Shown here: piece after piece, positions 29,365 through 46,619 of the stretch
Layout: each line of letters starts with the position of its first letter
Position numbering within the stretch: position 1 is the stretch's first letter
Assembly (NCBI GenBank): GCA_021773835.1
Contig: JAJFJQ010000062.1
Location: 207,322 to 271,321, forward strand
Origin: Gammaproteobacteria bacterium
Lineage (GTDB): Bacteria; Pseudomonadota; Gammaproteobacteria; Ga0077536
DNA length: 64,000 nt
Direction: 5' to 3'
The notes under the pieces: generated by a model
The model's input: only the letters and a program-made list of their open reading frames with translations
The model's database searches: none
What the model was told of the DNA's origin: nothing
Made by a program: the position numbers and the translations under genes

Positions 29365-29429
29365 ATAACGCATTGATTTAATTGGTGGGCGATACTGGGT
29401 TCGAACCAGTGACCCCTGCCGTGTGAAGG
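29365..29429. repeat. Partial duplicate of the tRNA-Val 3' half plus ~10 bp flank. Left att-like boundary of the island.
   Basis: ~65 bp with 2 mismatches relative to 46526-46590 (taacgcattgatttaattggtgggcgatactgggttcgaaccagtgacccctgccgtgtgaagg). Confidence 0.8.
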
Positions 29430-29534
29430 ACCTATAGCAATTTATAAATTCCGTAAAACTAATCACTTAGCGCATTCGGCCCCGCGCAATCGTGACTGGA
29501 GATGACAGTTGACGACTGGAACTGACTGCGGGTG

Positions 29535-29551
29535 GTCACGATTTGGTCACG
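29535..29551 (+). repeat. 17-mer GTCACGATTTGGTCACG, left copy (the second copy is at 46480-46496). Candidate integrase arm-type site.
   Basis: An exact 17 bp match occurs just inside both island ends in the same orientation. Confidence 0.5.
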
Positions 29552-29693
29552 TTGCCGATTAATTGCGTGGGACTACGAATTCGCCACCAATAGGTTGATT
29601 TCGCAATTACGAATATTCAGCAGGGGCAGGCCGTTTGTACCCAAAATCACTAACGATTGACGATACTAACGACATTCGTTACTATTTGGCGCA

Positions 29694-29975
29694 GTGATCA
29701 AGTCGTTCAAATGCCGGCAGACTGAGCGAATTTTCCGCGGAAACTTCTCTCGAAAATTTCCACGGGACATTCAGCGTATCGCGGCACGGAAACTTGAAAT
29801 GCTGGAAGCAGCTACCGTTTTGGGTTCGTTACGGATCCCTCCTTCCAACCGCCTTGAGAAGTTGAAAGGTGATCGCTCTGCCCAGCACAGCATTCGAATT
29901 AACGATCAATGGCGGATCTGTTTCGTTTGGAAACGCGGGGATGCGTTCAATGTAGAAATCGTGGATTACCACTAG
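29694..29975 (+). CDS. higB: HigB toxin (RelE/ParE superfamily mRNA interferase)
   Basis: 93 aa with KSFKC...RIFRGNFSRKFPRDIQRIAARKLEMLEAA...LKGDRSAQHSIRINDQWRICFVW...VEIVDYH. Confidence 0.85.
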   Translation: MIKSFKCRQTERIFRGNFSRKFPRDIQRIAARKLEMLEAATVLGSLRIPPSNRLEKLKGDRSAQHSIRINDQWRICFVWKRGDAFNVEIVDYH

Positions 29976-29986
29976 CGAGTAAACAA

Positions 29987-30286
29987 ATGACCAAGAGAGA
30001 ATTTGAACCCATCGCACCCGGCGAAATTCTGCTGGAAGAGTTTCTTCGTCCGATGGGGATCACCCAGTACCGATTAGCGAAGGACATCAGTGTTCCACAA
30101 AGGCGGGTCAGTGAGATCGTGCAAGGCAAACGCGGGATCACTGCCGATACCGCGTTACGCTTTGGACGGTTCTTTTGTATGGAGCCGCAGTTCTGGCTGA
30201 ATCTACAGTCCCGATTTGACTTACTGCGCGCTGAAGCCCAATTAGAAGAGCGCTTGGACAAGGAAGTGACCCCGCATGCTGCCTGA
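29987..30286 (+). CDS. higA: HigA antitoxin (XRE-family HTH)
   Basis: Starts at MTKREFEPIAPGEIL 12 nt after the higB stop. HTH region YRLAKDISVPQRRVSEIVQGKRGIT. The tracked ORF begins upstream in the same frame. Confidence 0.8.
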   Translation: MTKREFEPIAPGEILLEEFLRPMGITQYRLAKDISVPQRRVSEIVQGKRGITADTALRFGRFFCMEPQFWLNLQSRFDLLRAEAQLEERLDKEVTPHAA

Positions 30287-30533
30287 TTCGTTCACTCGTA
30301 TGTCTATTTGACGCGGAGGTTTTGTCAAGTTGTTACGCGCATGACAGATCGTGTCGTTGGAGAAGAAGCGCCGCCGTGCATCAGGCACACGTCACCTGTG
30401 ACCGAGTTTGAAACGCGCGCAAACGCAACCCGCGATAACTCTTCGCTCGTAATAGAAATCGACCTGGGCGAAACAGATTGTTGCACTGACCGTGCACGTT
30501 CAGGAATCGTTGCGCATTTCCGTCGGAGCGGAA

Positions 30534-31076
30534 TCAGCGCATCTGTCTTTCTTGCTCACGCGTCGGCTCATGCGAAACTTCCGCTCGATTGTCCGCGTAT
30601 CTATCCTGGCAGTGCGGCACGGATGGCATCACTAGGCGTTTGGCTGACGCGTAATTGCGAAGCTTATCGGTTGTGATCTCAATTGGAACGTTAAATGGTG
30701 AGCGCATCGCCTTCCGAAAGAAGCGCTTAGCCGCTTTCGTATCTTTGTGACTTTGCACGAGGATCTCGATCAAATCGCCGTCCTGGTCCACGGCCCGTCA
30801 AAGGTAACGACGCTTTCCTTGAACTGAAACGACGACTTCGTCGAGAAACCAGCGGTCGCCGCGAGGCCCTTGATGTTTTCTAATTCGACGAACGTAATCG
30901 GGTCCAAAGGTGAGACACCGCTGGCGAATGGTTTCGTCCGAAACCGAAACACCTCGCTTCGCTAACAGGTCTTCGACATCACGGGAGCTCAATGTGAAGC
31001 GATGATAAAGCCATACTGCCGGCGCGATGATTTCGGGTGGGAATCGGTATCCGCGGTAATCAGGAGAATTCGTCAT
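30534..31076 (-). pseudogene. IS6-family transposase remnant (frameshifted and C-terminally truncated)
   Basis: Two adjacent ORFs in different frames match the N-terminal part (FPPEIIAPAVWLYHRF...DEVVVSVQGKRRYL) and the middle part (DQDGDLIEILVQSHKDTKAAKRFFRKA...PIEITTDKLRNYASA) of IS26-like transposases. Confidence 0.65.
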
Positions 31077-31133
31077 TGCTAAGTCGTCGGCTATCCTGGG
31101 CTAACCTGACGGAACCCGCAATACGAATGCCGC

Positions 31134-32042
31134 TTAGATCTGCTTAATCAACTCGGAACTCAGCAGCAACCGATCGAGGCGCCGTTCCAGTTCCGGCGTA
31201 GCCGGTACCATTGGCAGTCGATGCTCGTTACTTCTGATCAAACCCATCTTTTTCATCATGTACTTGATCGGGATCGGATTAGTGTCCCAGAACACCGCCT
31301 GGTTCAAGTCATACAACTCGAAGTGCAGTGCGCGCCCAGTACTGAGATCCAGACGTTGCATCGCATCACACAGCGCAATAATCTTGTCTACCGCCACGTT
31401 GCCGACAGCGTTCATTACGCCTACGGCGCCAAGCGCGAGCATCGGGAAGCTCAAGGACTCAAGTCCGACAAATATGCGGAACGAACTGCCGAAGGCGAGC
31501 AGGCAATCGCTGACGAAATCGAGATCATTTACCGCGTGTTTGATCCCGACCAGGGTTGGTACACGGGTCGCGATCTGTTCTACCGTTGCAACATCGACCG
31601 ATACTGCAGCACGCCCGGGGATGTGGTAGATCAATAGCGGTCGATCGCTGCGCTCGCCGACCGCAGCGAAATAATCAACCAGCCCTCGACGCGGTGGACG
31701 GATATAGTATGGCGTCACCACGAGTATGGCATCCGCGCCACATTCGGTAGCGTGCTCGGTCAGTTGAAACGTCTCGACGAGTGACTGCGAACCGGTTGCG
31801 GCAACGACCTGGCAGCGACCGGCAGCGACGCGCACAGCCGTACTGACCAGTTCATTGCGTTCGGCAACCGTCAGTGAGCTTGGTTCGGCAGATGTTCCAT
31901 TGACGACAATTCCGTGGCCACCTTGCTCGACTTGCAGTTCGACTAGCTGCTGGAAGCTCTCAAGGTCAACCCGACCATCGTGGAACGGGGTAACGATGGG
32001 CGTGAATGAACCGCGCAATGAGTCGTCAGTAAGTGTCAGCAT
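31134..32042 (-). CDS. DapA-family (dihydrodipicolinate synthase / N-acetylneuraminate lyase superfamily) lyase/aldolase
   Basis: 302 aa with PIVTPFHDGRVD...NGTSAEPSSLT. Confidence 0.8.
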   Translation of the reverse strand: MLTLTDDSLRGSFTPIVTPFHDGRVDLESFQQLVELQVEQGGHGIVVNGTSAEPSSLTVAERNELVSTAVRVAAGRCQVVAATGSQSLVETFQLTEHATECGADAILVVTPYYIRPPRRGLVDYFAAVGERSDRPLLIYHIPGRAAVSVDVATVEQIATRVPTLVGIKHAVNDLDFVSDCLLAFGSSFRIFVGLESLSFPMLALGAVGVMNAVGNVAVDKIIALCDAMQRLDLSTGRALHFELYDLNQAVFWDTNPIPIKYMMKKMGLIRSNEHRLPMVPATPELERRLDRLLLSSELIKQI

Positions 32043-32195
32043 AAAAGTTGCCGCCCGGGCTCGTGAATATACTTAGTATGCTAAGTATATTCACGAGATC
32101 GACCGATAGCAAGCTAAGGTGAGCAGGGCCGATATCGCGCATACGGTCGTGGCCGGGATCTGCGCGGGGAATGAGTTCGCGGGTACACTATCGTC

Positions 32196-32744
32196 ATGAG
32201 CAGGCGCAGCAGAGGCAATTCCGGGGAAACGACCGAGTCGAAGTCCGCTACGACAGTCGAGTTCTCGCTCGATCAGAGCATGGGGGCGCTCGTCCGCTTT
32301 ACTCACCGCGCTTTCCTCGAGGACCTGCAGTCACACCTCGCTACGCATGACGTAAACGCGGGCATGTGGTTCTTTCTGCGGACGCTTTGGGAAGAAGACG
32401 GCATCACCCAGCGGGAGCTGAGCCGGCGGATAGGTATCTCGGAACCAACTGCGCTGCATCAGTTGCGCAAGATGGAAAGCGCGAAGCTGCTCGAGCGCCG
32501 ACGATCGAAAACGGATCGTCGTAAATTTGACGTCGTGTTGACCGCCAAGGGCCGCAGGCTGAAACAGAAACTACTGCCGTACGCGGTCGATCTCAATGCG
32601 GACGCACTGATGGGGATTCCGAAAAGCGATGTCCAGATCGCGCGGCGCGTGCTTGCCGATATTCGCGATAACCTCAGCAAACGGCGCCAGGAACGCGATG
32701 TCGCCATCCGTAAAAAGGCTGGCCCGGGGGCTAGCAAGGACTGA
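32196..32744 (+). CDS. MarR-family transcriptional regulator
   Basis: RELSRRIGISEPTALHQLRKMESAKLLERRRSKTDRRKFDVVLTAKG. Confidence 0.75.
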   Translation: MSRRSRGNSGETTESKSATTVEFSLDQSMGALVRFTHRAFLEDLQSHLATHDVNAGMWFFLRTLWEEDGITQRELSRRIGISEPTALHQLRKMESAKLLERRRSKTDRRKFDVVLTAKGRRLKQKLLPYAVDLNADALMGIPKSDVQIARRVLADIRDNLSKRRQERDVAIRKKAGPGASKD

Positions 32745-32796
32745 ATTGCGGACTCGCACCAGGCTCACGAACCTAGCGGGCCACGGCCGCCCGGAC

Positions 32797-33090
32797 CTAC
32801 TCTTCGATAGCGGCCAGACGCCAGTTTCTAAAAACCGGTTCGTCGGCCGGCACGATCTCAGTCCGCAGCAATGCGTAACATCCAGGGCAGAAGGCCTGTC
32901 GTAGAACAATTTCGCGTTTTGTGTAATGACTCGGATCGGCATGGACACCGGGTCCGGCGTCAGCGGCCGGGCGCACCCGTTGCAGCGCGCCTGATAATGG
33001 ATCGGTTCGCGCATTCCCAATCGTCGCTGAGCAATGCCGACACTGCACGACCCCGGCACTGTCAACTGTGAGATTGTCATCGATGTTCAT
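32797..33090 (-). CDS. Small Cys-rich subunit resembling the acetone carboxylase gamma subunit
   Basis: ~97 aa from the internal Met MNIDDNL. Two Cys pairs (CRHC...CPGC). Positioned immediately after the hydantoinase B-type gene, as in acxABC. The family call is from memory. Confidence 0.45.
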   Translation of the reverse strand: MNIDDNLTVDSAGVVQCRHCSATIGNARTDPLSGALQRVRPAADAGPGVHADPSHYTKREIVLRQAFCPGCYALLRTEIVPADEPVFRNWRLAAIEE

Positions 33091-33109
33091 GCTGCTACTC
33101 CCGTCGGTT

Positions 33110-35086
33110 TTATCCGGCTTTGCGATCTCCGGCCCGCACTTCGCGTAATTGGTTGCGCCGCGTCTGGGTAGCCGCATCGTCCAGCGTGCCGTCGGCGTCA
33201 CAAACGACACCGTAAATCATGTCCGCGGCATGGGCAGAAACACGCTGCCGATGGATGTCGTGCACGACTTCGTGTGGGTCGCGCAGTAACGGATCGCCAT
33301 AGCCGCCGCCCCCCTGCCAATGGGTGTAGTACACGTCGCCCGGATCAAGGTCTGTTTCAGCATGTGAAGGCAGCTCATCATGTTGCCCGACAATATCCTG
33401 CAGATTGCGCGGGATCCGGCCCGCGGCGAACTGCTGGTGCACATCGGTGGCGCGCACCAGTACGTCGTAGCTGTTGTTTGCGGGATATCCGCCGCACAAA
33501 CCGTGGGCCAGCGGCAGCGCTTTCCCTGGCGAGGAAACGACCAGGTGCACGCGACCGGCGGGCGAGTCATGTGGAATAAAGCAGCTCGAAGCACCAAGTC
33601 CGCCACGAAAGCGCCCAGGACCACCAGAATCCACCTCCTCACGCCGCCAGAGGTAAAGCATCGGAAAACTGAATTCGTTGATTTCTACATCCGCGATGCG
33701 GCCCATCGGAATGCAACTCTGGCCTCCGGTATCAACTCCATCGCGATCTGTGCGGGCGCCGAGGCCGCCGGACATGGAGTCGCACAGCATGGTTACGAAT
33801 GGTCCGCCGCGCTGATCCACACCTGCCAGTACGGTCAGATCCCAAGTCCCTTCGCAAACCGACATTGCGCCACGGCAATGCTGCGGATGCGTGACCAGCA
33901 TACTGGCGATAGTTTCCGACACTGCATTTTGCGTCGCCCAGGCCGAAGCAACGGAGGCTTTGCCGACGCCCGCCGGGAAAGTGCAATTGTTGATCGTACC
34001 CTGCTCGCTGATGATATTCAGGCAACGGTATATGCCGCCGGGGACCCAGGGAATGTCGTTACACAGCATGGTCAATACGATCGGCATAATGCCGCCACGC
34101 AAACCGGCGAAGGTGCAGTTAATAAAGCCCTCGACCTGCTTGTCAGTACCGGTGAAGTCGAACGTAAGGCTGTCGCCCTGTTTACTCATCTGAAGCACGA
34201 TCTTGTAGATACCGTCATCCCCGGCGCGCGCGCCGTCCTGGTGGGCCACCGCCCCCCAGGTGCCGTTCGGCAGGCTGCTCAGTTTTGCGCGGAGACGCTT
34301 TTCAGCATCCGCCATCATGCGTTTCATGACCGCCTTGACCGTGTCGGGGCCATATTTCCCGATTAACTGGTCAAGACGCTCCTGTGCAACGTTATTGGCG
34401 CCAAGCTTGGCGCGCAGATCGAGCGCGATAAGCTTCGGGACACGGGAACGACGCAGGTACATGTCCTCGATGTCCGGACGTAGCTCTCCGCCCTCTATGA
34501 TCTTGACGGGCGGTACCGGCGTCGATTCCCAAAATACGTCGCGCCCGGATACCGACCAGCTGCCGGGCGATACGCCGCCAAGGTCAACCTGATGGCACAC
34601 CGCGCCGGTCCACGCGAACAGCTTACCGTCGTGGAACAGCGGTGCGAACAAGCTCACGTCGTTTTGATGCAGTCCGCCACCAACCCAGGGGTCGTTGCAC
34701 AAAAACATATCGCCGGGCTTGATCCCGGGGCGTTCGCAGCGGTGCTCCAGAGTCCACTTAATCGCCATGTCGAGCGATGCAGCGAGTTGCGTGTTGTAAA
34801 CCCCGACCAGCACGAGATCGCCGGTTTCGTCGGCAATCGCCGCGCTGAAGTCATTGCAGTCGGTAACCACAACGGAGCCGGACATGCGCTTCAGGGCGTC
34901 ACCCATATCTTCGGTGATGGCCGCGAGGCGGTGCCGGATGACTTCGAACGTCAACGGGTCGACCGCTTCAATGGCGCGTTCGTCAATTGTATGGATCGCC
35001 AGGTTCGACGCAGCGGCAAGCAGTTCCGCCGGACTGCGTTGGACGAAATTAAAGCGTTCGGAGCCGGAAACGTGGGTGATCGTCAT
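33110..35086 (-). CDS. Hydantoinase B / oxoprolinase-family subunit (acetone-carboxylase alpha-like)
   Basis: 658 aa with DPLTFEVIRHRLAAITEDMGDALKRMSGSVVVTDCNDFSAAI. A 4 nt overlap with the upstream hydantoinase A gene. Confidence 0.88.
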   Translation of the reverse strand: MTITHVSGSERFNFVQRSPAELLAAASNLAIHTIDERAIEAVDPLTFEVIRHRLAAITEDMGDALKRMSGSVVVTDCNDFSAAIADETGDLVLVGVYNTQLAASLDMAIKWTLEHRCERPGIKPGDMFLCNDPWVGGGLHQNDVSLFAPLFHDGKLFAWTGAVCHQVDLGGVSPGSWSVSGRDVFWESTPVPPVKIIEGGELRPDIEDMYLRRSRVPKLIALDLRAKLGANNVAQERLDQLIGKYGPDTVKAVMKRMMADAEKRLRAKLSSLPNGTWGAVAHQDGARAGDDGIYKIVLQMSKQGDSLTFDFTGTDKQVEGFINCTFAGLRGGIMPIVLTMLCNDIPWVPGGIYRCLNIISEQGTINNCTFPAGVGKASVASAWATQNAVSETIASMLVTHPQHCRGAMSVCEGTWDLTVLAGVDQRGGPFVTMLCDSMSGGLGARTDRDGVDTGGQSCIPMGRIADVEINEFSFPMLYLWRREEVDSGGPGRFRGGLGASSCFIPHDSPAGRVHLVVSSPGKALPLAHGLCGGYPANNSYDVLVRATDVHQQFAAGRIPRNLQDIVGQHDELPSHAETDLDPGDVYYTHWQGGGGYGDPLLRDPHEVVHDIHRQRVSAHAADMIYGVVCDADGTLDDAATQTRRNQLREVRAGDRKAG

Positions 35087-37212
35087 GCCAGTTTCTCCTT
35101 CTCGCTTCCGTTAACGGTCGCGACGTAAGTAATTCTGAGATTACCGAGTTCGTCGACCCGTGCATCGCAACCGAACGGTATGGCAACGGTGGTCGTCGGC
35201 GCCTCAACCACGGCTGGTCCTTTCAGGGTATCGCCCGGTCCGAGATCGAGATAATCGTAAATCGCAGTGCGTTCAAATCCACGCCGTATATCCAGGAATA
35301 CGTCGCGACTACCCCGAGCTTGCGCGCTTGCAGGCTTGCGTTCTGCGTGCGGCAATTCCGGCCGTATCGGCAGGCGGCCGCGGACCCGCATGCGATATGT
35401 GATCAACTGCATGCCCGCATCCCGATAGCCGGCATCCTTACCATACAGCTCCGCATACAGTGCTTCGAACGATTGTCCGATGGAGTCGACCTTCTCGGCG
35501 TCCAGTTCCCCGGCTGGAACCGGGGTCGTTACCTCGGCCAGCTGCATGGTGTAGCGAACGTCGACCTCGCGCTCGTAGGTCACGTCCGTAAAACTTAATC
35601 CCTGCTCGTCAAGGTAAGCGCTAAGTTCCCGCTCCAGGTCGCTGAAAATGTCCTGTAGCTGTTGCGGATCCGGTGGAAAATTTTCAGGTTGCGAGCGTTC
35701 GCGGGTCAGGACGATGTCTGAGCTGGCAAGACCGTACGCCGAGAACACAGCCGCAGTTGACCCGAGCGGAACCAGTACTTCGATGACGCCAAGATCGGCC
35801 GCATAGCTTGCGCAATGCATGGGGCCTGCGCCACCGAACGCATAGAGAACGAAATCGCGCGGATCGCGGCCGCTGTTTACAACCACCTTGCGTACCAAGT
35901 CAGCAGCCTGTGCATTCTGGATTGCGTAGATGGCTGCAGCCGCATCGCTAACGCTCATGCCGAGCGGGTCAGCGATATGTTTTTTGATCGATGCTTTCGC
36001 ACTCGCGACGGATAGTGGTTTTTTGCCGCCCAGGAAGTAATCCGGATTAATGATGCCGAGCACCAGGTCCGCGTCGGTCAATGTGGGGCGCTCACCGCCC
36101 TCGTCATAGCAAGCCGGACCAGGGTGCGCGCCGGCGCTATCCGGACCGACGCGCAGGTTGCCACCCTGGTCAAGCCACGCGATCGCGCCACCGCCAGCTC
36201 CAATGGTATGCACGTCGACCATGGAACTCGAAATCAGATACTGATTGATGACCACTGTATTGGTCGAGACAGGCTTGCCGTCCACCAACAAGCCAACCAG
36301 AAATGTTGTGCCGCCGATATCGGTCGAGATTACGTTGTCATGGTTAAGGATTCGGCCCAGATTCGCGCAACCGACGAGGCCGCCGGTAAGCACCGAACCA
36401 AGCGTTGTGACGGCATGACGAGGTGCCTCGCGAGCGCGAACGCAGCCGCCAGAACCTTGCATCACAAGTAGCGAGCCGTCAAAGCCACGCCCACGCAACT
36501 CGTCTTCCAGCGGGTACAAGTAGCCACGGAGGATAGGCGCGACCTGGGTATTAACTATCGTGGTGGCGCTGCGCGGAAATTCACGAATGCGCGGACTGAC
36601 ATCTGAAGATAGTGCGACGTAGAGGTCGGGCGCTATTTCACCAATAATGTCGCGGACTCGATGTTCGTGCGCCGGATTGCTGAACGACCAGAGAAAAGAC
36701 ACCGCTAGCGCTTCGACGCCTTTATCGATCAGCCGCCGGGTCGCCTGGCGAACGCCGCCCTCATCAAGACACACAATTTCCGCCCCTTTGTAGTCGATCC
36801 GCTCGTTGATTTCCTCGATCAATTGACGCGGCACCAGGGCTGGCGGTTTGCTGGTGTTGGCCATGTTCTGGATTTCTTCTGCATCCAGGCCAGCATAGCG
36901 TCCCTCAACATTCATAATCGAAATAGAATCGGCGTGCCCCTGAGTGGTCATGAATCCGACTTTGGACACATTGCCCGTGACCAGTGCGTTAAGCGTGGAA
37001 GTTGTACCGTGCACGATATAGTCCGTATTGCCGAGCAACTCTGGCGTGCTGATCCCGACTACTGCGGCCAGTTCGTCGACGACATTCAGGAACCCGAGCG
37101 AAAAATCGTGCGGTGTAGACGGTGATTTTGCTGCGAACAGGATGCCCGCTTCATCGGCCAGGAAACCATCCGTAAAGGTACCCCCGGTATCGATACCCAT
37201 AACATATGCCAT
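35083..37212 (-). CDS. Hydantoinase A / oxoprolinase-family subunit (acetone-carboxylase beta-like)
   Basis: 709 aa with the N-terminus MAYVMGIDTGGTFTDGF and ASKHA-fold ATP-binding motifs. Confidence 0.88.
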   Translation of the reverse strand: MAYVMGIDTGGTFTDGFLADEAGILFAAKSPSTPHDFSLGFLNVVDELAAVVGISTPELLGNTDYIVHGTTSTLNALVTGNVSKVGFMTTQGHADSISIMNVEGRYAGLDAEEIQNMANTSKPPALVPRQLIEEINERIDYKGAEIVCLDEGGVRQATRRLIDKGVEALAVSFLWSFSNPAHEHRVRDIIGEIAPDLYVALSSDVSPRIREFPRSATTIVNTQVAPILRGYLYPLEDELRGRGFDGSLLVMQGSGGCVRAREAPRHAVTTLGSVLTGGLVGCANLGRILNHDNVISTDIGGTTFLVGLLVDGKPVSTNTVVINQYLISSSMVDVHTIGAGGGAIAWLDQGGNLRVGPDSAGAHPGPACYDEGGERPTLTDADLVLGIINPDYFLGGKKPLSVASAKASIKKHIADPLGMSVSDAAAAIYAIQNAQAADLVRKVVVNSGRDPRDFVLYAFGGAGPMHCASYAADLGVIEVLVPLGSTAAVFSAYGLASSDIVLTRERSQPENFPPDPQQLQDIFSDLERELSAYLDEQGLSFTDVTYEREVDVRYTMQLAEVTTPVPAGELDAEKVDSIGQSFEALYAELYGKDAGYRDAGMQLITYRMRVRGRLPIRPELPHAERKPASAQARGSRDVFLDIRRGFERTAIYDYLDLGPGDTLKGPAVVEAPTTTVAIPFGCDARVDELGNLRITYVATVNGSEKEKLA

Positions 37213-38776: not shown

Positions 38777-38836
38777 GTGCCTGCCCTGTACAGAGGTGTT
38801 GCAACAATCGGGAACGCTGGTTACTGCGCGCGTGGA

Positions 38837-39643
38837 TCAGAGAAAAGTCAGACCACCGTCCACTGTTAAGGACTGCCCGGTCATAAACGCGCTGGCGTCG
38901 CTCGACAAGAACAGAATGGTGCCGACCAGGTCATCCGGCGCTTGCGGGCGCGATACACAACGCATCGCGATCATCGCGTCGCGCTGCTGCGGTGTGACGG
39001 TTTCGCGCTCGATTTCCGTTTCTACGGCGCCCGGCAGGATCGTATTGACGGTGATTCCATGTGGGCCAAGTTCGCGCGCGAGACTGCGCGACATTCCAAC
39101 CAGGGATGACTTCGAGGTTGTGTAGTGGAGATAGTTACCGCGGCCCATGGTGACTGAGGCGGAACCCATGTTGACGATGCGACCATAGTTCTGGTCAACC
39201 ATCACCGGAGCGGCGGCTCGCGCCATCAGGAATGGTCCGGTAATGTTGACGCGTAGTACCTGGTCCCACTCGTCGAGTGGAATTTCAGTAAACGGGCGCA
39301 TCTTAATAGTCGAGAAAATTCCGGCATTGTTGATCAGGATGTCGAGGCGACCGAATGCCGCTACAGCTGCAGTAACTGCAGCGTTCGCCGAATCGGCCTG
39401 TGCGACATCGGTTTGGCAGGCCAGGGCTTCGCCGCCCGCAGCGCGGATAGCCGTAGCTACTCGCTCCCCGCTTTCAGCATTACGCTCCGCGATGACAACC
39501 GCGGCGCCGGCATCGGCGAATGCGTGCGCGAAAACCTGTCCGATGCCTTGACCGCCGCCGGTAACCATGGCGACGCGCCCGGCCAGATCGATTTGATTAC
39601 TCACTGCATAGTCTCCCATTGTTTGCTCGTCCCTCGCGACCAC
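38837..39643 (-). CDS. Short-chain dehydrogenase/reductase
   Basis: VTGGGQGIG motif and YTTSKSS catalytic Tyr/Lys. The true start may be the internal MGDYAV. Confidence 0.88.
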   Translation of the reverse strand: MVARDEQTMGDYAVSNQIDLAGRVAMVTGGGQGIGQVFAHAFADAGAAVVIAERNAESGERVATAIRAAGGEALACQTDVAQADSANAAVTAAVAAFGRLDILINNAGIFSTIKMRPFTEIPLDEWDQVLRVNITGPFLMARAAAPVMVDQNYGRIVNMGSASVTMGRGNYLHYTTSKSSLVGMSRSLARELGPHGITVNTILPGAVETEIERETVTPQQRDAMIAMRCVSRPQAPDDLVGTILFLSSDASAFMTGQSLTVDGGLTFL

Positions 39644-39931
39644 TGGCGTCGGGTTGATAACTCCGCAGCGTCAGTGGACCGGGCGAAAATGACGAGAATA
39701 TCCTGCAGCCGAACCGCCCTAAGGTGCCAGCGTTAACGCTCACGGGTTTGATACAGCCTAGCGCAAAATACTTAGTAAGCAAAGTATTTATTCAGAGCGA
39801 GTTCAGACTGACGCGGACGATGCGCATTACTTGAAAGAAGTGGTCGCCGAGCGCAGGAAAGTGGTTTCCGGCTGCGCAATCAGCGGCATCCTAGCAGGGG
39901 CAACAGCGGTGAAGATGAACTTAGGCGAGCC

Positions 39932-40549
39932 CTAGTTGCTACCTGGCCGCTTCATCTCGAAGGTTTCACCGAGACGGGCGTAAGTGGCGCCACCCATCCG
40001 CATTATCGGCGCTGCTTCCACGGTGTCGAAACGGTCATCCTCGGTCAGAAGGACGTCTTGGACATGAACTGCGACCACGCGTCCGACAACCAACGCGGAA
40101 TGGCGTTCACCGGGCTGACTGGGTGGTAGATCGACGATACGGACGACTCTGCATTCTAGATTGGCGGCCGCCGCTTTGACGCGCGGAACCCCGACTGTGA
40201 CGCCTGGAGCGCACTCGAGACCTGCAAGTTCAAACTCGCTGACACCGGGCGCCGCAGTAGCAGAGGTGACATTCACAGCTTCGCGTAGGGCGTAGGAAGC
40301 AAAATTGGCGACAAATTCAGGTACCACTCTCACGTTGGCGAGCGTGTCCTTTTCTTCCCGGTCTGCGGCACCGTTGACGGAGAATGCGACCATTGGAGGT
40401 GAGGTCGAGATCGCGTTGAAGTAGGAAAACGGTGCAAGGTTTGGTCCGCCAAGCGCATTGACCGTACTAATCCAGCCGATTGGTCGCGGCGCAACAATCG
40501 CGTTCACAATCGATGGACGAAAATGCTCGTCGGTGCTTTTCATGAACAT
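39932..40549 (-). CDS. Flavin reductase (HpaC/NADH:FMN oxidoreductase-like domain)
   Basis: 205 aa with IVAPRPIGWISTVNALGGPNLAPFSYFNAISTSPPMVAFSV. Confidence 0.85.
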   Translation of the reverse strand: MFMKSTDEHFRPSIVNAIVAPRPIGWISTVNALGGPNLAPFSYFNAISTSPPMVAFSVNGAADREEKDTLANVRVVPEFVANFASYALREAVNVTSATAAPGVSEFELAGLECAPGVTVGVPRVKAAAANLECRVVRIVDLPPSQPGERHSALVVGRVVAVHVQDVLLTEDDRFDTVEAAPIMRMGGATYARLGETFEMKRPGSN

Positions 40550-40666
40550 GGCAGTTCCCTTGGCTGGCCTCAGACTTTAGTCCGGGTGAACGAGCAGGCC
40601 CGTTCTTCCGTAGCTATACAATTGACGAGAGTATGCTAAATTACTTAGCAAGCAAAGCATTATGCC

Positions 40667-41242
40667 TTGGCATCGATGACGACTAATCAGGACGTTCCGC
40701 GAATTCCTTTCGAGGATTTGCGTGAAGATATTGCCGATTCTCTCCGCGCCAAGTTCGAGCGCCTGGGTTACCTCGGTGAATTCTTCTCCGCAACGGCGCA
40801 CCAGCCTGACGCGCTGATGGCGTTCATACTTTTTACAGACGCAGCGAAGGCTGAACTCGATCTAAAATCGGTCGAATTGATCGCACTGACGGTTGCGACC
40901 ATGAAGGCCGTAGCCTACGAAAAGAATCAGCACGAACGCCTTAGCGTCAAGTCCGGTTTCGGACGTAAATGGGTGGCCGCCGTAGAAGCACTCGCACCTG
41001 AACGGCATGACACACTTAGCGAGAGCGAAAAGCGCATGCAGCGTTTCGTGATCGAAGCCGTACGTGCAGATGGCAAAAATATTACGCTATGGCGGCGCGC
41101 GCTCTGCGATGACCTTGGCCACGTCAAGACCATTGCCGTGATGATGGTTATGGCGCGTTATACGAGCCACGCCTTATTGGTCAACGCCCTAGACATTGGT
41201 GCTCCGGTACCTTCCATATTTGACAATACTGAAGGTGGCTGA
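40667..41242 (+). CDS. Carboxymuconolactone decarboxylase/AhpD-like family protein
   Basis: All-helical ~190 aa protein with a CxxxxH-like element (ALCDDLGH). The assignment is tentative. Confidence 0.45.
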   Translation: MASMTTNQDVPRIPFEDLREDIADSLRAKFERLGYLGEFFSATAHQPDALMAFILFTDAAKAELDLKSVELIALTVATMKAVAYEKNQHERLSVKSGFGRKWVAAVEALAPERHDTLSESEKRMQRFVIEAVRADGKNITLWRRALCDDLGHVKTIAVMMVMARYTSHALLVNALDIGAPVPSIFDNTEGG

Positions 41243-41269
41243 CGGTCAAAGCCACGAGGGAAATCCGAT

Positions 41270-42391
41270 ATGAACAACGCTGAACCAGTTATCGCGGATG
41301 AGAGCGGGAAACCGCTTGGGACTGTCACGCCCGACGCTGCGCGCCCGGGCGAGGATTGGCCACCATTGACAATCCGGCGCGCTGTCATCGAACGGGAGAT
41401 TGAGCGTCTGTGCGATATTTCAGTGCCCGAAAACGGTCGGCGTCAGGTGCAGTTTATCCACCCATCGGCTAATCCAGCAACACCCGGGCTCAATCCGGGA
41501 GTGCGTGTGATGTTGGAGGTGTTGCTGCCAGGTGAGCAAACCGCGCTCGGCCGGCACAATTCGACACAGGTCAATTTTTGTATTCGCGGGGCCGGTACGA
41601 CCGTGGTCGGCGCACGGCAGGTCCATTTCTCGCAATACGACGTGTGGAACATACCTTCTTACTCGCCTTACAGACATGTCAACGATTCCAAAGACGTGCA
41701 GGTTAGGCTGACCTATTCGAACGCGCCGCTATTGGAGATGTTACGGGTCCATTTGGTCGAAGAGAATCCATTGCCCGGCGCGAGTCTCGAATTGGCAGCG
41801 GCATCCACACCAAGTGCGAATAACCGTGGTCAGAGCCCATTCGGCACCTTCGCGATCGGTGACGATGGTGCACACCTGATGCCGTACGAGACGCTGATCA
41901 GTCCGTCACAGGTCGATTCACGCGCATTGCACTGGCCGTGGGCGGTGGTACAGGAAAAACTCGACCAACTGGCCGGGCTAGGCAGCGAGTACACTGGCCG
42001 GCGCCTGTATCTCATGTATAACCCGATGACCGGCCGCTCCAACGGCACCACGCCCAACTTTTTCGCAACCATTACGATCAGACCACCGAAGATTATCGAC
42101 CGGCCGCATCGCCACGTGTCTTCGGCAATCAACTATTATTTTCGGGGAAGCGGCTACAGCGTAGTCGAAGGTCAGCGTTACGAGTGGGAGGCTGGCGACC
42201 TGATGGTGTCTGCGCCGGGCTGGGCCGTGCATAACCATGCCTCGTATGACGAACCGGTTTACGAGCTGACGGTGCAGGATCAACCACTGCACATCATGAT
42301 GGAATCGCTGTTGTGGCAGGAAAGTATGAAGGAGCCCGCCGCGATTCTGGGCTCGGCGGTGGGTTTTGCGACCAACCGCGCAGCAGGCTGA
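41270..42391 (+). CDS. Bicupin protein, gentisate 1,2-dioxygenase-like
   Basis: 373 aa with two cupin modules (LLPGEQTALGRHNSTQ... and RPHRHVSSAINYYFRGSGYSVVEGQ). Confidence 0.55.
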   Translation: MNNAEPVIADESGKPLGTVTPDAARPGEDWPPLTIRRAVIEREIERLCDISVPENGRRQVQFIHPSANPATPGLNPGVRVMLEVLLPGEQTALGRHNSTQVNFCIRGAGTTVVGARQVHFSQYDVWNIPSYSPYRHVNDSKDVQVRLTYSNAPLLEMLRVHLVEENPLPGASLELAAASTPSANNRGQSPFGTFAIGDDGAHLMPYETLISPSQVDSRALHWPWAVVQEKLDQLAGLGSEYTGRRLYLMYNPMTGRSNGTTPNFFATITIRPPKIIDRPHRHVSSAINYYFRGSGYSVVEGQRYEWEAGDLMVSAPGWAVHNHASYDEPVYELTVQDQPLHIMMESLLWQESMKEPAAILGSAVGFATNRAAG

Positions 42392-42569
42392 GTCGATTAT
42401 CTGAGCGAGACTAGTGACACACCGAGCGTGCGCTACGACGTGCGCGCCGATTCACCAGTACAAACCACACGCCATCACCTCAGGATGACTTCCAGCCTCA
42501 GGGTCTGATGGTTTCAGAATCGCGTTATCGTGCGAACGGCTGATGTTCGTCAAATCGCTATCGCCTGCA

Positions 42570-42640
42570 ACTGTTAGGGGGTGACAAATTGTCACCAGCC
42601 TCTGACAACGATGACAGTACACCGGGTCATGGGCATCAGG
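42570..42640. promoter_or_regulatory. Cluster of TGACA-containing palindromes: GGTGACAAATTGTCACC at 42570-42586 and GTCATGGGCA-N5-TGCCCATGAC at 42616-42640
   Basis: Perfect inverted repeats ~140-200 bp upstream of the 42780 ORF. Confidence 0.4.
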
Positions 42641-42779
42641 TGCCCATGACAACCCCAGAAACACCACTAAAACCCAAATAGAATCACCACCACTATCAAA
42701 CCGCAACCCCGGAAAAGGCGCTCGCGGATCCACTATAAGTGGCGGTAGGGATTTACGTGATCTTGGATACCCGAGTGCT

Positions 42780-43445
42780 ATGTTGCCGATCGAATGCAGA
42801 GAAGCTCGCGCGAAGCTGGTGGGGCTTGCTGACGAGTTGGCGCAGCAGTTTCTCGACGAACTCGCGGCGAGTATCAAAAAGGGTGTCATCAAAACGACAC
42901 CGTTTGCCTATCTACGTGGATTGGTTAAATGTGCACGCGTCGGCACGTATGCCCCGGAGGGTGCGCTGACGATAGCGCGTCAACGACAATGTAAGGCCGC
43001 GGTCGACCTGGCATTAACGCGCGTAGTGCCGCTGGTACCGCTTATCCGATTGAGCCGGTCGACCCAGACAGCGCGTTGGTCAAGAGATTGCTCAACATCC
43101 GACAGCGCTCGGGTAGGTCAAACCACACAACGAATTAGTGACGTCGCCGACCTGTACGGCGGACGCTCGTGCGTGCGTATGTACGAAAAACGGCGATATC
43201 CGCAAGGCAATAGGAACGCACGGTTTAGAGCGAATTTATTGGATCGCATCGGCCACAACAAGACGTTGCGAGTATTAGTTAAAGTCAATAGGTTGGTGCC
43301 CTGGGCTCCAATTGAGCAAAAAGTAACCACCTGTCGAATATCGACACTTAACCGTGGATCGACGATTTTTTATTCCGATGGCGTATTTGGTAGTGACGGC
43401 TTAGTCGGTATTCGTTGGACCAGAGAGAAAATAACAAATCGTTAG
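42780..43445 (+). CDS. Hypothetical island protein (no recognisable family)
   Basis: 221 aa tracked ORF. Only the N-terminal ~90 aa look protein-like (ARAKLVGLADELAQQFLDELAASIKKG...). Confidence 0.3.
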   Translation: MLPIECREARAKLVGLADELAQQFLDELAASIKKGVIKTTPFAYLRGLVKCARVGTYAPEGALTIARQRQCKAAVDLALTRVVPLVPLIRLSRSTQTARWSRDCSTSDSARVGQTTQRISDVADLYGGRSCVRMYEKRRYPQGNRNARFRANLLDRIGHNKTLRVLVKVNRLVPWAPIEQKVTTCRISTLNRGSTIFYSDGVFGSDGLVGIRWTREKITNR

Positions 43446-44306
43446 ACGGACATCTTAAAGTCAATAGGTTGATGCCGCCGGCATCAAGATAGTGACTCTA
43501 GAATTCGTAGATGGGAGGAGTACCCGCCGGCGCGCCGGGCCCACGAGCATTGGCCTAGGGCCAATGCAACGTGTTTGTGTCTACGACACGCTGCAGTCGC
43601 CGACGTTGAGCGAAGGTCCGCGTCACTACACAAGCGAAGCGCAGTAGTGACGCGGACGAAATCGGTGCCTTGGGCCTTGCCCGCTGGGCCGATTCCTGAA
43701 CTGTGCACGAATGCCCCGCGAATTACGGTGGGAACCCCGCACGTCGGTGACTTGATTTATCCGGATGCCAGCTTCGCGCCCGTCTAGACTCATCCGGCGT
43801 GAACGATTTTATCCGTGGCCACTACGGCAAAGTGGCAACCAAGGCATCGTCGGACCGTGTAACCGATGCATCGGCGCAAGCCGCGGTCCATCTTCAAGCA
43901 AATGACAAACCAATCGGAGCGTCCATCCTCGCCGGCAGTTGCCAGCGATTCAATCATCGAGCGTCCGTTTAGCGAATGTTGCTTAGTGCTCATTTTTTTT
44001 AATGCAGTTAGCCGCTGCAATCTTAAAAGGAGGTGTTTAACCATTGTCGAAACTCACCCGGAAACGGGATCGTTGGATTGCGCGAGAACTTCTTCAACAG
44101 AGGAAAGCTCGCGTTGCCTGTAACCAGGCGCTTTTAGGTTGACTGGGACTGGTGCCCCATGACTGCTCCGCTGTAGCGGTCTTGCCAGCTTCGGCTGTCA
44201 GGAAAGTCGGAAACACTTACCGAAAATCGGAAGCACTGTGAGAAGCCTGAACTACCAACTGAAAATGCTGTGTCGGCATTCCCGCGAAGGGAGTTATGCG
44301 ACGCAG

Positions 44307-45101
44307 ATGAATCGCGAACGCATGCTGACTTTGATCGCGAATGAATTGCACGAGCTCGGATATCGCAAGATGAGCGAGCGTTCCTTGAAACCGAAACATA
44401 TCGATGCGTTAGTGAAGCATTGGTTTGATCAGCGCTTGTCGATCGGAACCATTAAGAACCGCATGGCCGTGATCCGCTGGTGGGCGCACAAGGCCGATAA
44501 GCAGAATGTCGTTGCACGTAGCAACGATCACTATGGGATCTCGGATCGACGATTCATTGCCGATGAATCGAAGGCTAAGTCGGTTACCGAATCGCAATTG
44601 GAAAAGATCGTAGATGCGCACGTCCGCATGAGCCTCGAACTTCAGCAAGCTTTCGGATTGCGTCGAGAAGAGGCGATGAAGATTCAACCGAGCTTCGCCG
44701 ACCGCGGTGACCACATCGTTCTGAAACCAAGTTGGACGAAAGGCGGTAAGGATCGTGCGATCCCGATCCGGACAGAAGCGCAGCGAGACGTGCTCGATCG
44801 TGCGCGGCAACTCGCCGGTCTTGGCTCGTTAATACCGAGCAATCGAAATTATGTCCAGCAGATGCGGATCTACGAGCGCGACACCGTGCGCGCTGGTCTG
44901 TCGAATATGCATGGACTACGGCACGCCTACGCACAGAATCGATACGAAGAATTAACTGGTTGGAAATGCCCCGCGGCCGGCGGCCCGGCAAAGGCATCGC
45001 TGATGTTTGAGCAACGGGTAGTCGATAGAGAGATGCGGCTAACGATCAGCCGTGAATTGGGCCATGAGCGCGAGCAAATCACGGCAGCCTATTGCGGGTA
45101 G
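44307..45101 (+). CDS. Tyrosine recombinase-family protein (second recombinase of the island)
   Basis: C-terminal HGLRHAYAQNRY...GHEREQITAAY motif (His-x-x-Arg ... Tyr). Start chosen at MNRERML with AAGGGAG upstream. The tracked ORF begins at 44238. Confidence 0.6.
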   Translation: MNRERMLTLIANELHELGYRKMSERSLKPKHIDALVKHWFDQRLSIGTIKNRMAVIRWWAHKADKQNVVARSNDHYGISDRRFIADESKAKSVTESQLEKIVDAHVRMSLELQQAFGLRREEAMKIQPSFADRGDHIVLKPSWTKGGKDRAIPIRTEAQRDVLDRARQLAGLGSLIPSNRNYVQQMRIYERDTVRAGLSNMHGLRHAYAQNRYEELTGWKCPAAGGPAKASLMFEQRVVDREMRLTISRELGHEREQITAAYCG

Positions 45102-45227
45102 CGATATCGTTCGTGAAGCGGACACACGCAGCCTGAAAAAACTACGCACTTCGTTGAATTGAATTACTGCAGCGGATCCGGTGCGTCCCTCGTAAGCTCC
45201 CGTTAAGCACACTTAACCAACCTGCGA

Positions 45228-45644
45228 ATGGCCGAAACCATACTGTTAACGATACCTGAAGTCGCAGAACATTTACGCGTCTCAGCCCGGACTGTTCACC
45301 GGCTTATCGCTGCGAAATCGTTACCGGTTTGCAAGGTTGGTCGCTCTGTTCGAATCAGAAGAGTCGACCTCGAGCGTTTTCTGGACCCCGAATCCACGAC
45401 GCCTGATAATAAGACCTGCACGGGGCCGGGTGTGCGTAACCGAGAGGAAAACGTATGCCATACCGTCGCAAAGACAGTACCGTTTGGTGGGCGTCTTACG
45501 TCGATGCAAGCGGACAAAGAGTTAGACGAACTACTGGAACAACGGACCATAAGGAGGCAAAAGCGCTCGAAGCCAAATGGAAGCTTGAAGCGTTCCGAAC
45601 AGGGCAGTGGGGCGAAGAGCCGAGCCGAACGTTCGCGGAGTTGA
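45228..45644 (+). CDS. AlpA-family (MerR-like HTH) excisionase/regulator
   Basis: MAETILLTIPEVAEHLRVSARTVHRLIAAKSLPVCKVGRSVRIRRVDLERFL. The tracked ORF runs on to 45644 and overlaps the integrase start out of frame, so the functional end is uncertain. Confidence 0.6.
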   Translation: MAETILLTIPEVAEHLRVSARTVHRLIAAKSLPVCKVGRSVRIRRVDLERFLDPESTTPDNKTCTGPGVRNREENVCHTVAKTVPFGGRLTSMQADKELDELLEQRTIRRQKRSKPNGSLKRSEQGSGAKSRAERSRS

Positions 45645-46543
45645 TGGTGCCTTATCTAAAGGCGACAGCAACTAAGAAACGCAGTCATGAACGCGATCGA
45701 TACCTAGTCGCGAGATTGCGCGAATTTTTCGGTGAGCATGATCTTCGGTCTTTAAGTCCCCGAGACGTTCGAGCCTATATTGAGCATCGCCAAAGCAAGC
45801 ACGTAGGGCCGGCGACTATAAATCGGGAACTGGGCCTCTTATCCGCGGCACTCAATTGGGCAAAGCGGGACCTGGAGTGGCAGTTACCGAACCCAATAAT
45901 GGGTCGTCTGCTGCAGCCGCCGGAAGGACGGCTACGTTGGCTAAGTCGGCAGGAAGCAGACCGATTGATCGCGGCGGCGCGTAAGCAAAGCCGAGCGAAA
46001 TATTTGGTCGACTTTCTTGAACTGGCTTTGCACACGGGCATGCGCCGGGGCGAGATGCTCAACCTGGAGTGGCAGCGGGTCGATCTTGATGAGGGGCTGG
46101 TCTACTTACGCGGGGCGAATCAGAAGAACGGCAAGTTTGGGAGCGTGCCATTGAACGCAACCGCGAAAGCCGCTTTGGTACGTCGCGATGCGTTCAGACG
46201 GGAAAACTGTCCCTCGTCGTCCTGGGTGTTCGCGCACAAGGACGGCGAACGCGTTGCATCTGTGAAATGCTCGTTCGCAACTGCGTGCGCCACGGCCGGG
46301 ATCGAGGATTTTCGGATCCACGATTTACGCCATTGTTGTGCCGCGTGGCTGGTGCAGGCGGGTGTTTCAATCCGGGCTGTCGCCGAGCTGCTGAGGCACT
46401 CGGATATCCGCGTCACGATGCGCTACGCCCATTTGGCACCGGAAACTGTGCGCGCCGCGGTCTCAGTCTTGGATGCTGAGTCACGATTTGGTCACGGTGC
46501 AGACTTGGATAAACGCGAAAAGGAGGTTAACGCGTTGATTTAA
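45455..46543 (+). CDS. int: Site-specific tyrosine integrase (phage/P4-like)
   Basis: 362 aa with an arm-binding-like N-terminus and HDLRHCCAAWLVQAGVSIRAVAELLRHSDIRVTMRYAHL catalytic box. Its stop lies 1 nt before the tRNA-Val 3' end. Confidence 0.9.
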   Translation: MPYRRKDSTVWWASYVDASGQRVRRTTGTTDHKEAKALEAKWKLEAFRTGQWGEEPSRTFAELMVPYLKATATKKRSHERDRYLVARLREFFGEHDLRSLSPRDVRAYIEHRQSKHVGPATINRELGLLSAALNWAKRDLEWQLPNPIMGRLLQPPEGRLRWLSRQEADRLIAAARKQSRAKYLVDFLELALHTGMRRGEMLNLEWQRVDLDEGLVYLRGANQKNGKFGSVPLNATAKAALVRRDAFRRENCPSSSWVFAHKDGERVASVKCSFATACATAGIEDFRIHDLRHCCAAWLVQAGVSIRAVAELLRHSDIRVTMRYAHLAPETVRAAVSVLDAESRFGHGADLDKREKEVNALI

Positions 46544-46544
46544 T

Positions 46545-46619
46545 TGGTGGGCGATACTGGGATCGAACCAGTGACCCCTGCCGTGTGAAGGCAGTGCTCT
46601 CCCGCTGAGCTAATCGCCC
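46545..46619 (-). tRNA. tRNA-Val (anticodon CAC)
   Basis: The reverse complement GGGCGATTAGCTCAGCGGGAGAGCACTGCCTTCACACGGCAGGGGTCACTGGTTCGATCCCAGTATCGCCCACCA folds as a cloverleaf, with CCA encoded. Confidence 0.85.

Follow-up and report, generated by a model that had tools for sequence, protein, structure and literature searches.

Among the sites at which elements integrate into tRNA genes, the anticodon loop is said to form a sublocation class of its own, a classification that reportedly goes back to Williams in 2002. Genomic islands in tRNA genes are a well-known class, in which the island regenerates the target gene and leaves a displaced fragment of the original, the principle on which Islander is built (PMC4383910). 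A different aspect of island mobility has been characterized in SGI1: the atypical relaxase MpsA, for which PF12835 serves as a signature (PMC10484663), is genetically required for transfer of this island (PMC6414798), and its locus is arranged as origin of transfer (oriT), sgm-sRNA and mpsA (PMC9299015). Recombinase-related relaxases ('MOB_M') have been reported to be the commonest chromosomal relaxases, with 96% found near an integrase (2026 preprint, bioRxiv 10.64898/2026.01.13.699239). Here we analyze a 64-kb stretch of a gammaproteobacterial genome (contig JAJFJQ010000062.1, positions 207,322 to 271,321; hereafter, the window, whose own numbering is used throughout). The segment 29366-46591 is very probably a 17.16-kb integrative genomic island that was put into tRNA-Val(CAC) by a lambda-type, arm-binding tyrosine integrase. 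It is an ordinary member of the class of tRNA-gene islands, with an intact tRNA gene, a displaced 3' fragment, a tyrosine integrase at its end, and absence from the same site in relatives. The features that define the island are the following.

46545-46619, minus strand: intact tRNA-Val(CAC), the integration target (ARAGORN and Rfam RF00005, 66.1 bits).
46528-46591, minus strand: tRNA-proximal attachment (att) copy, part of the functional tRNA together with the last codons of the integrase gene, int.
29366-29429, minus strand: distal att copy, the displaced 3' 47 nucleotides (nt) of tRNA-Val and 17 nt of downstream flank (62/64 identity to 46528-46591).
45455-46543, plus strand: int, encoding a tyrosine integrase of 362 amino acids (aa) with an Int_N arm-binding-type N-terminus (PF00589, 121.5 bits; PF24624, 33.3 bits).
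45228-45644, plus strand: xis, excisionase-family gene (HTH_17/TIGR01764; Pfam/NCBIfam match), 138 aa, with a 190-nt overlap with int.
46480-46496, plus strand: predicted proximal arm-type motif GTCACG-N5-GTCACG in the 3' coding end of int, found in 18/18 family loci with a tRNA.
29430-29560, plus strand: predicted distal attP arm (P'-like), with an inverted half-site within 29484-29506 and a tandem GTCACG-N5-GTCACG at 29535-29551.

The island is bounded by a 64-nt direct repeat that was detected by a repeat search and confirmed with blastn (E 2e-27). Its two copies start 17,162 bp apart and match at 62 of the 64 positions, without any difference in the anticodon-loop part. The repeated block consists of the 17 nt downstream of tRNA-Val and the 3' 47 nt of the tRNA itself, of which the last 2 belong to the 5' side of the anticodon stem. 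Because int stops at 46541-46543, 1 nt before the 3' end of the tRNA at 46545, its last five codons lie inside the repeat. A first-pass annotation of this DNA, made from the letters alone, had proposed an integrative element at tRNA-Val in which the att repeats, xis and int are all intact, a reading that is now backed by comparative evidence, and its placement of the int stop codon 1 nt from the intact tRNA is exact. The repeat that it had given as 65 bp (29365-29429 versus 46526-46590) is genuine, although it is 64 nt long and the right-hand coordinates were off by 1-2 nt; the gene that it called an AlpA-like excisionase does belong to an excisionase family, which is of the HTH_17/TIGR01764 type and not the Pfam AlpA family. 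Three components considered below, namely, an MpsA-homologous recombinase-like gene, a Rep-like pseudogene and the arm-type sites, are absent from that annotation.

As in other Islander-type islands (PMC4383910), the sequence of the island regenerates the target tRNA, the displaced 3' fragment lies at the far end, the tyrosine integrase gene adjoins the tRNA, and the identity block runs from the anticodon loop past the 3' end of the tRNA. The differences are that, in the window, this block continues for 17 nt beyond the tRNA and takes in the last five codons of int together with the stop codon, and that the integrase family is itself uncharacterised. In an alignment of seven members of this family, the residues R197, K224, H289, R292, H315 and Y324 are invariant. 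The Int_N domain (PF24624) covers residues 57-148 and scores 33.3 bits against a cut-off of 27; the protein is equal in length to its homologues, and hundreds of relatives were found. Judged by these sequence features, the integrase looks functional. In every element examined (the window, L083, L084, L086 and L104), the xis open reading frame (ORF) spans 124-138 aa and overlaps int by 133-190 nt. This ORF is unusually long; it overlaps the start of int in another frame, and its tail in that region carries the shared motif MQAxxELxxLL.

Both ends of the island carry a conspicuous repeated motif. The 17-mer GTCACGATTTGGTCACG is present in the 64-kb window in two copies only, one at 46480, 48 nt from the end of the tRNA, and the other in the non-coding DNA at 29535, which is 105 nt inward of the distal att copy; a GTCACG hexamer in inverted orientation is located at 29491. 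Altogether, the 299 nt of both arms contain six GTCACG hexamers versus 0.19 expected (Poisson P 5e-8). In 13 of the 18 family loci with a tRNA, all of which contain GTCACG-N5-GTCACG, the motif lies 47-50 nt from the 3' end of the tRNA. The same layout recurs in L104, whose integrase is only 52% identical to that of the window and which occupies a different tRNA: each end carries the motif, which is 48 nt away from the tRNA at one end and ~107 nt inward of the distal copy at the other, the same spacing as in the window. The two distal arms share three conserved blocks and can be aligned with no gap in their interior, the one irregularity being a 7-nt offset where the core starts. Because this layout occurs together with an Int_N domain, we infer that the GTCACG repeats are candidate arm-type sites to the left and right of the core, the arrangement known from phage lambda. 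The possibility that the left GTCACG copy is a remnant of the 3' end of an older integrase gene was considered and rejected: relative to the att copy, it is positioned towards the island, which is the wrong order for such a remnant, and L104 has the same layout. L104 (1-3392) is a complete 3.24-kb element at tRNA-Lys(TTT), with 55-nt att repeats, xis and int, and also holds a 289-aa putative rolling-circle replication initiator, recognized by motif, and a 149-aa ORF. No smaller member of the integrase family was found in this analysis.

Similarly to phage lambda, the island thus combines an integrase of the heterobivalent type, with an arm-binding-type N-terminal domain and a catalytic domain, an excisionase gene upstream of int, and repeated motifs that, as read here from the sequence, may serve as arm-type sites on both sides of the core. 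Unlike lambda, the core is a tRNA anticodon stem-loop, one of the arm sites falls within the coding sequence of int, phage genes are lacking, and Xis is of the HTH_17 type, with a long tail and the 190-nt overlap with int.

In both the window and L104, the anticodon loop is where the identity block begins. Integrases that are 86-90% identical target tRNA-Val and tRNA-Pro genes that share AGAGCACTGCCTTC and GGCAGGGGTC, stretches of 14 nt and 10 nt flanking a 4-nt difference in the anticodon loop (ACAC versus GGGA). This pattern fits a core that is bound at the anticodon stem and strands that are exchanged across the loop, where the crossover would be expected within TTCACAC. Comparison of L083 10001-11168 with 45455-46619 also shows 23 identical nt that end at the TAA closing int in the window. 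The outer flank of the left att copy matches the native flank downstream of tRNA-Val in the relative L144 in 20/26 nt (by eye), and the right copy is preceded by int, in agreement with the left copy being the original chromosomal 3' part. We also considered whether the 17-nt identity past the tRNA might be the scar of an earlier element; such a scar is not needed because the native flank of this closest relative already resembles the 17-nt stretch.

In the proposed mechanism, crossover would take place at the anticodon loop, with the island supplying the replacement 3' part of the tRNA (46545-46591), and the original 3' part along with its native flank would be displaced by 17 kb, to 29366-29429. 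The circular attP would comprise the core with GTCACG-N5-GTCACG arm-type sites ~100 nt to each side, one in the 3' end of int and the other in the non-coding DNA of the distal end. The N-terminal domain of the integrase would bind these arm-type sites, and the HTH_17 Xis encoded upstream would direct excision. The predicted attP junction reads GAAAAGGAGGT, the 64-nt block and ACCTATAGCAATTTATAAATT, and the predicted attB junction reads CAGGTCGGATATCGTCA, the 64-nt block and CAGTGCTCTCCCGCTGAGC.

Comparison with related genomes indicates that the island was acquired. The closest relative by gltX (89%) is represented by L144/L145, which are syntenic with the window at 81-85% DNA identity through tRNA-Val(CAC), CHRD, gltX, tRNA-Ala, a molybdopterin oxidoreductase gene and tRNA-Glu. 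The similarity of L144 to the window ends at the att block: L144 9027-9393 corresponds to 46528-46893, and L144 9024-9090 corresponds to 29363-29429. In L144, no integrase gene follows tRNA-Val, and nothing of 29430-46527 is found in the 9 kb beyond. L122, which is more distant and has the same CHRD-gltX flank, carries a different island at the same tRNA-Val, with a 327-aa integrase that is 31% identical to that of the window. With these occupants, tRNA-Val is therefore a hot spot whose occupancy varies, and the 17-kb segment is not ancestral. The CHRD gene (46808-47386) separates tRNA-Val from gltX in the window, L122 and L144/L145, but L084 has no such gene in between; a database entry with both CHRD and GltX domains (P0274, 701 aa) may be a fusion or a miscalled gene.

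The xis-int-att module itself (45228-46664) is 81% identical at the DNA level to the corresponding part of the sister elements L083-L086, and all else differs. The similarity over xis and int begins exactly at the xis start codon (45228), or at 45179 of the window in the case of L083, and the arm motif is identical. In L084, L085 and L086, the integrase is 86% identical to that of the window and the cargo is of the BREX type (BREX/PglZ in L084 and L085); L084 and L086 reproduce the geometry at tRNA-Val(CAC), with int ending 1 nt from the tRNA, which in L084 is followed by gltX, tRNA-Ala and tRNA-Glu. In L083, a 90% identical integrase is encoded at the end of a set of conjugation genes (TraC/TraU/TraG), next to tRNA-Pro(CGG). 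Because the same module recurs with quite different cargo, it appears to be mobile. A scan of metagenomes yielded 33 integrase loci, and a tRNA directly follows int in 18 of the 29 that were scanned for tRNAs; among the 11 without a tRNA, the contig ends within ~150 nt of the match in 8. The targets of the family include tRNAs for Val, Pro, Met, Ala, Arg, Lys and Leu.

Between the two att copies, the island is a mosaic that joins the xis-int-att module to a HigBA addiction module, catabolic-type genes and the remains of a core with rep and MpsA-like genes. Among the 20 island ORFs that were scanned, Pfam searches detected no type IV secretion or coupling protein family, as would mark an integrative and conjugative element, and no capsid, terminase, tail or lysis gene, as would mark a prophage. 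The features of the distal part, where those of the catabolic-type block were assigned with Pfam/NCBIfam, are as follows.

29694-29975, plus strand: HigB-like toxin (PF05015, 65.5 bits, profile positions 1-91 of 91).
29987-30286, plus strand: HigA antitoxin (TIGR02607, 103 bits against a cut-off of 47.7; 99 aa in Logan contig L082).
30375-31076, minus strand: IS6-family transposase pseudogene, full length (NF033587, profile positions 2-86 and 91-179 of 202).
31134-32042, minus strand: DapA/HpaI-like aldolase.
32196-32744, plus strand: MarR regulator.
33110-35086, minus strand: hydantoinase B (hydantoinase/oxoprolinase-type).
35083-37212, minus strand: hydantoinase A (hydantoinase/oxoprolinase-type).
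37289-38776, minus strand: aldehyde dehydrogenase.
38837-39643, minus strand: SDR.
39932-40549, minus strand: flavin reductase.
40667-41242, plus strand: CMD-like protein.
41270-42391, plus strand: bicupin dioxygenase-like protein, related to gentisate or 5-aminosalicylate dioxygenases.

The HigBA module named in the first-pass annotation holds up, with the arrangement of a type II toxin-antitoxin system, a HigB-like toxin gene followed by that of a helix-turn-helix (HTH) antitoxin. The IS6 transposase that the same annotation took for a remnant is present as well, although not truncated: it extends over its full length in a single frame of 233 codons that is interrupted by two in-frame TGA stops, presumably at the position of the usual W of a typical IS6 transposase in the case of the first stop, and probably at that of an R in the case of the second. 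With a single IS6 copy, itself a pseudogene, and no clear terminal inverted repeats, the structure does not qualify as an IS6 composite transposon. An inverted repeat around the cargo (31864/40857, 73%) was judged to be a chance match.

The nine enzyme and regulator genes of the catabolic-type block (31134-42391) had been described as a complete catabolic module, which our searches do not bear out. None of the pathway-specific equivalog models attains its cut-off with these proteins; the generic DapA model alone does so, and for the aldolase it is outscored by an HpaI-type aldolase model. Neither a transporter nor an oxygenase partner for the flavin reductase was detected in the block with Pfam/NCBIfam.

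The ~1.8 kb between the bicupin gene and the next intact gene contain no intact gene. This region and the gene that follows it make up the remaining part of the island.

42502-43129, plus strand: HTH_36 Rep-like pseudogene that lacks the N-terminal 58 aa and contains one in-frame stop and two frameshifts.
43279-43311 and 43455-43487, plus strand: 33-nt repeat in two copies, both with a hairpin at the end, which may be remnants of iterons.
43616-43657, plus strand: perfect hairpin with 14-bp arms and a 14-nt loop (inverted-repeat search), candidate oriT core.
43790-44237, plus strand: conserved, apparently structured non-coding element upstream of the tyrosine-recombinase-like gene (RNAalifold covariation).
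44238-45101, plus strand: intact tyrosine-recombinase-like gene, 287 aa (PF12834 and PF12835), homologue of SGI1 MpsA and putative atypical relaxase.

As the MpsA reference, we used a 321-aa Salmonella protein (L142) that was identified by the residues R162, H247, R250, H251 and Y319 (residues from PMC6414798). The 287-aa protein is 34% identical to it over 171 aa (BLASTP, E 4e-24), and the catalytic R, H-x-x-R-H and Y are aligned between the two. The family of the 287-aa protein is large, with 7,938 proteins at E <= 1e-5, many of them 76-91% identical. In chromosomes, the typical order of the core is integrase, small ORFs, HTH_36 Rep-like gene, 0.8-1.4 kb of repeat-bearing non-coding DNA, tyrosine-recombinase-like gene and cargo, which is often defence-related (SIR2-HerA, AbiE, restriction-modification). 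On the 4.9-kb plasmid pSIO1 (NC_006860) and on a Pleionea plasmid, a homologue is encoded directly before a T4 coupling protein gene, and no relaxase is annotated. Considering the homology to MpsA, the presence of PF12835, and the plasmid and integrase contexts, the 287-aa gene is therefore regarded as encoding a putative MpsA-type relaxase. Homologues are common on small plasmids (such as pSIO1, NZ_CP009352 and 14.6-kb Acinetobacter plasmids), and MOB-suite types 156/250 records as non-mobilizable.

The Rep-like pseudogene was delineated by tblastn with the 271-aa L122 protein as the query and consists of three pieces in three frames. The two 33-nt repeats are homologous to three tandem 116-bp repeats that lie between the rep and tyrosine-recombinase-like genes of L122 (8757-9104); the L122 trio is iteron-like, and the window keeps two diverged copies, 176 bp apart. 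A renewed stretch of similarity to L122 starts exactly at the hairpin, at 43616, with 87% DNA identity over 43616-45101, and a 50-nt stretch with the hairpin is 90-92% conserved in L130, L132, L137, L138 and L140. Upstream of the 287-aa gene, 620 nt are conserved across islands whose tyrosine-recombinase-like proteins are 78-91% identical. For nine sequences from approximately six lineages, the RNAalifold consensus contains 94 pairs, 24 of which show compensatory double changes; the controls gave 9.0 +/- 2.1 in column shuffles (0/500 reach 24) and 2-8 when the partners were slid by 1-3 columns. Several of the G-U pairs are invariant, which speaks for the strand of the 287-aa gene. Because the sample is small and the structure is derived from the same alignment, the structured element is a lead and not a result. 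Invariant AAGGAGGTG and GAAACACTYACC are found upstream of the tyrosine-recombinase-like gene in the window, L122, L124, L129, L130 and L132, and a Francisella plasmid has GAAACACTYACC at the corresponding position as well (weak match, E 1.6).

Apart from tRNAs, Rfam detects no match at the gathering cut-off or at E <= 1. A conserved 28-nt non-coding pattern has no match in a viral contig collection, a DNA search of 42400-44240 against plasmids returned none, and an nhmmer profile of the non-coding element gave no real hits in the MpsA-type locus L142 or in three plasmids. The succession of hairpin, structured element and relaxase-like gene parallels the oriT, sgm-sRNA and mpsA of SGI1, in layout only because the non-coding element shows no sequence similarity to the region upstream of L142. 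More broadly, SGI1 (PMC6414798, PMC9299015) and the island share Int and Xis, an MpsA homologue, a Rep-type gene, the lack of conjugation machinery of their own, and a long non-coding region with inverted repeats and an apparently structured element upstream of the MpsA homologue. The differences are that SGI1 is located at the 3' end of trmE and the island in a tRNA gene; that SGI1 has mpsB, in place of which the island has a fused PF12834 domain; that the island lacks traN, traG and traH, and its rep is dead; and that its cargo is catabolic-type, unlike the resistance integron of SGI1.

From these comparisons, the island is probably an integrative mobilizable element that would depend on a helper conjugative element; that it is in fact transferred with such help is possible, though we hold this with somewhat more doubt than confidence. 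Tentatively, and with a good chance of being wrong, 43616-45101 could be the unit that mobilizes a whole family of small islands, highly abundant and hitherto undescribed, among gammaproteobacteria of the environment, most of which are apparently marine. In such a unit, the structured element would be either an RNA like sgm-sRNA or a folded single-stranded DNA that transfer requires, and the hairpin would be an oriT nicked by a relaxase of the tyrosine-recombinase type.

Several observations weigh against the reading of the locus as an acquired, still mobile and mobilizable island. The clean, uninterrupted pyc/tRNA-Val/gltX arrangement that the first-pass annotation had proposed to look for was not found in the relatives examined, because pyc is not adjacent in L144; indeed, pyc never adjoins tRNA-Val in these relatives. 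A pyc-anchored scan of GTDB species genomes gave a best match of 78% identity, the nine loci inspected for tRNAs, which were the five top-ranking matches and four others, have none in the vicinity of pyc, the att sequence is absent from all 80 pyc-anchored loci, and a CHRD-anchored scan of JGI metagenomes returned no relatives. In composition, the island stands out weakly: there is a mild shift in GC content (0.565 in the island, 0.579 in the catabolic block, 0.53-0.55 in the flanks), and the tetranucleotide distance of the catabolic block, 0.19-0.21 versus 0.12-0.15 in most flank windows, is matched by a single flank window at 0.227. The conservation of the proximal arm motif may be partly at the protein level because the motif encodes S-R-F-G-H. 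The similarity to MpsA is confined to the catalytic half of the 287-aa protein, there is no small gene between 45101 and 45228 that could be a separate mpsB, the place of which is taken by the fused N-terminal PF12834 domain, and the island contains no T4 coupling protein gene. The IS6 and Rep-like pseudogenes imply residence long enough to decay. Finally, neither a circular junction nor an empty site from the same species is present in the data that could be reached, and exact look-ups of the GltX and Pyc proteins returned only Logan SRR15505512, the source sample. The Logan contigs break at ~46583, within the tRNA, and at ~30588, within the IS6 gene (contig L082), and these breaks are uninformative on excision because the tRNA sequence may be shared by other members of the community and the second break falls in the IS6 gene. 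Nothing beyond the repeat itself speaks for a second tRNA gene copy, a segmental duplication or genes ancestral to the locus, an explanation that we regard as extremely improbable: the left copy stops at the anticodon loop and yields no tRNA call from either ARAGORN or Rfam, being a fragment only, and in relatives with the same right flank, the left side of tRNA-Val is occupied by other DNA or by different islands, with L144/L145 containing none of the 17 kb. Both of the outcomes that the first-pass annotation had named as refuting its view are thus contradicted. A more substantial alternative, although still an unlikely one, is that the island integrated as proposed and has since become a plain part of the chromosome that no longer excises or transfers. 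The two internal pseudogenes, one with two stops and the other with a stop, two frameshifts and an N-terminal truncation, the 2 differences among the 64 att positions, and the failure to see an excised form or an empty site in any data reached are all compatible with such a relic. However, int keeps its catalytic hexad and length, the length of the xis ORF is conserved, the anticodon-loop part is identical in both att copies, both arms keep the conserved motifs in register with the distant relative L104, and decay appears to be limited to cargo, replication and transposition functions, so that all parts needed for excision look intact. Because int, xis, both att copies and both arms are intact, the island is probably still excisable, an assessment that we favour without holding it firmly.

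Two further alternatives concern the parts of the island and not the fact of its integration. The 287-aa PF12834/PF12835 protein might be a true site-specific recombinase that functions in multimer resolution or as a second integrase, in which case the island would have no transfer function of its own. We consider this rather improbable, despite the full tyrosine-recombinase catalytic set and the N-terminal SAM-like core-binding domain of the protein, the occurrence of homologues on very small plasmids with Rep and toxin-antitoxin genes, such as the 3978-bp Francisella plasmid, where a resolvase is expected, and the constant location of the gene beside a Rep-like gene and repeats. Against it stand the homology to a protein that is required for SGI1 transfer, the location of homologues next to the T4 coupling protein genes of pSIO1 and the Pleionea plasmid, and the reported proximity of recombinase-related relaxases to integrases. 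The other alternative is a history of accretion, in which an island with rep and the MpsA-like gene and an element with xis and int held tRNA-Val in turn and were fused by a deletion, and an IS6 event added the catabolic block and cut rep. This scenario is compatible with the integrative island that we propose, and we give it a serious chance, if not quite an even one. It is favoured by the 70-87% DNA identity of the block 42502-45101 to L122, where the different, 327-aa integrase adjoins tRNA-Val, by the presence of a separate integrase on the other side of the core in typical family members, and by the sharp onset of the xis-int similarity to L083-L086 at the xis start codon. Furthermore, the truncation of rep falls at 42502, which is 111 nt past the last catabolic gene, and IS6 abuts the other end of the block, its start codon being 57 nt from the aldolase stop codon; the position of the catabolic block between the dead IS6 and the truncated rep suggests an IS6-associated insertion or deletion. 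However, a former junction between two elements is marked by neither an internal att copy nor an integrase remnant, and there is only a single IS6 copy.

To the right of the island, the window contains what looks like a second insertion. The ~4.4 kb at 54407-58783, after tRNA-Glu (53834-53909), are not present in L144, which jumps from 54407 to 58783; they contain genes for a cyclase, a TPR protein and two unknown proteins, and are bordered by short repeats (53928-54074, 54106-54407 and 58709-58781). At 58493-58540, on the plus strand, there is an isolated fragment that resembles the 3' end of tRNA-Val (T arm, acceptor strand and CCA, followed by ATTAAATCAATG). It is 91-93% identical to the real tRNA-Val over 42-44 nt, lies 12 kb from that gene in the opposite orientation, and overlaps the end of the ORF 57438-58529. 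The fragment, which has no integrase gene in its vicinity, may be the relic of an att site.

The island is a textbook case of a tRNA gene as a docking site for swappable cargo, with one and the same xis-int-att module found with catabolic genes, BREX-type defence or a whole conjugation apparatus. Integrases that are 90% identical and reside at either tRNA-Val or tRNA-Pro, genes with the anticodon stem in common, represent a natural experiment on how the choice of target shifts. For a large integrase family that is uncharacterised, the layout of attP can be read from the sequence, which would help to delimit such islands automatically. The MpsA-like gene, along with the structured region upstream, would link a family of environmental islands to the atypical relaxase system of SGI1, and if the 287-aa protein is indeed a relaxase, the MOB-suite typing of plasmids with its homologues as non-mobilizable would be wrong.

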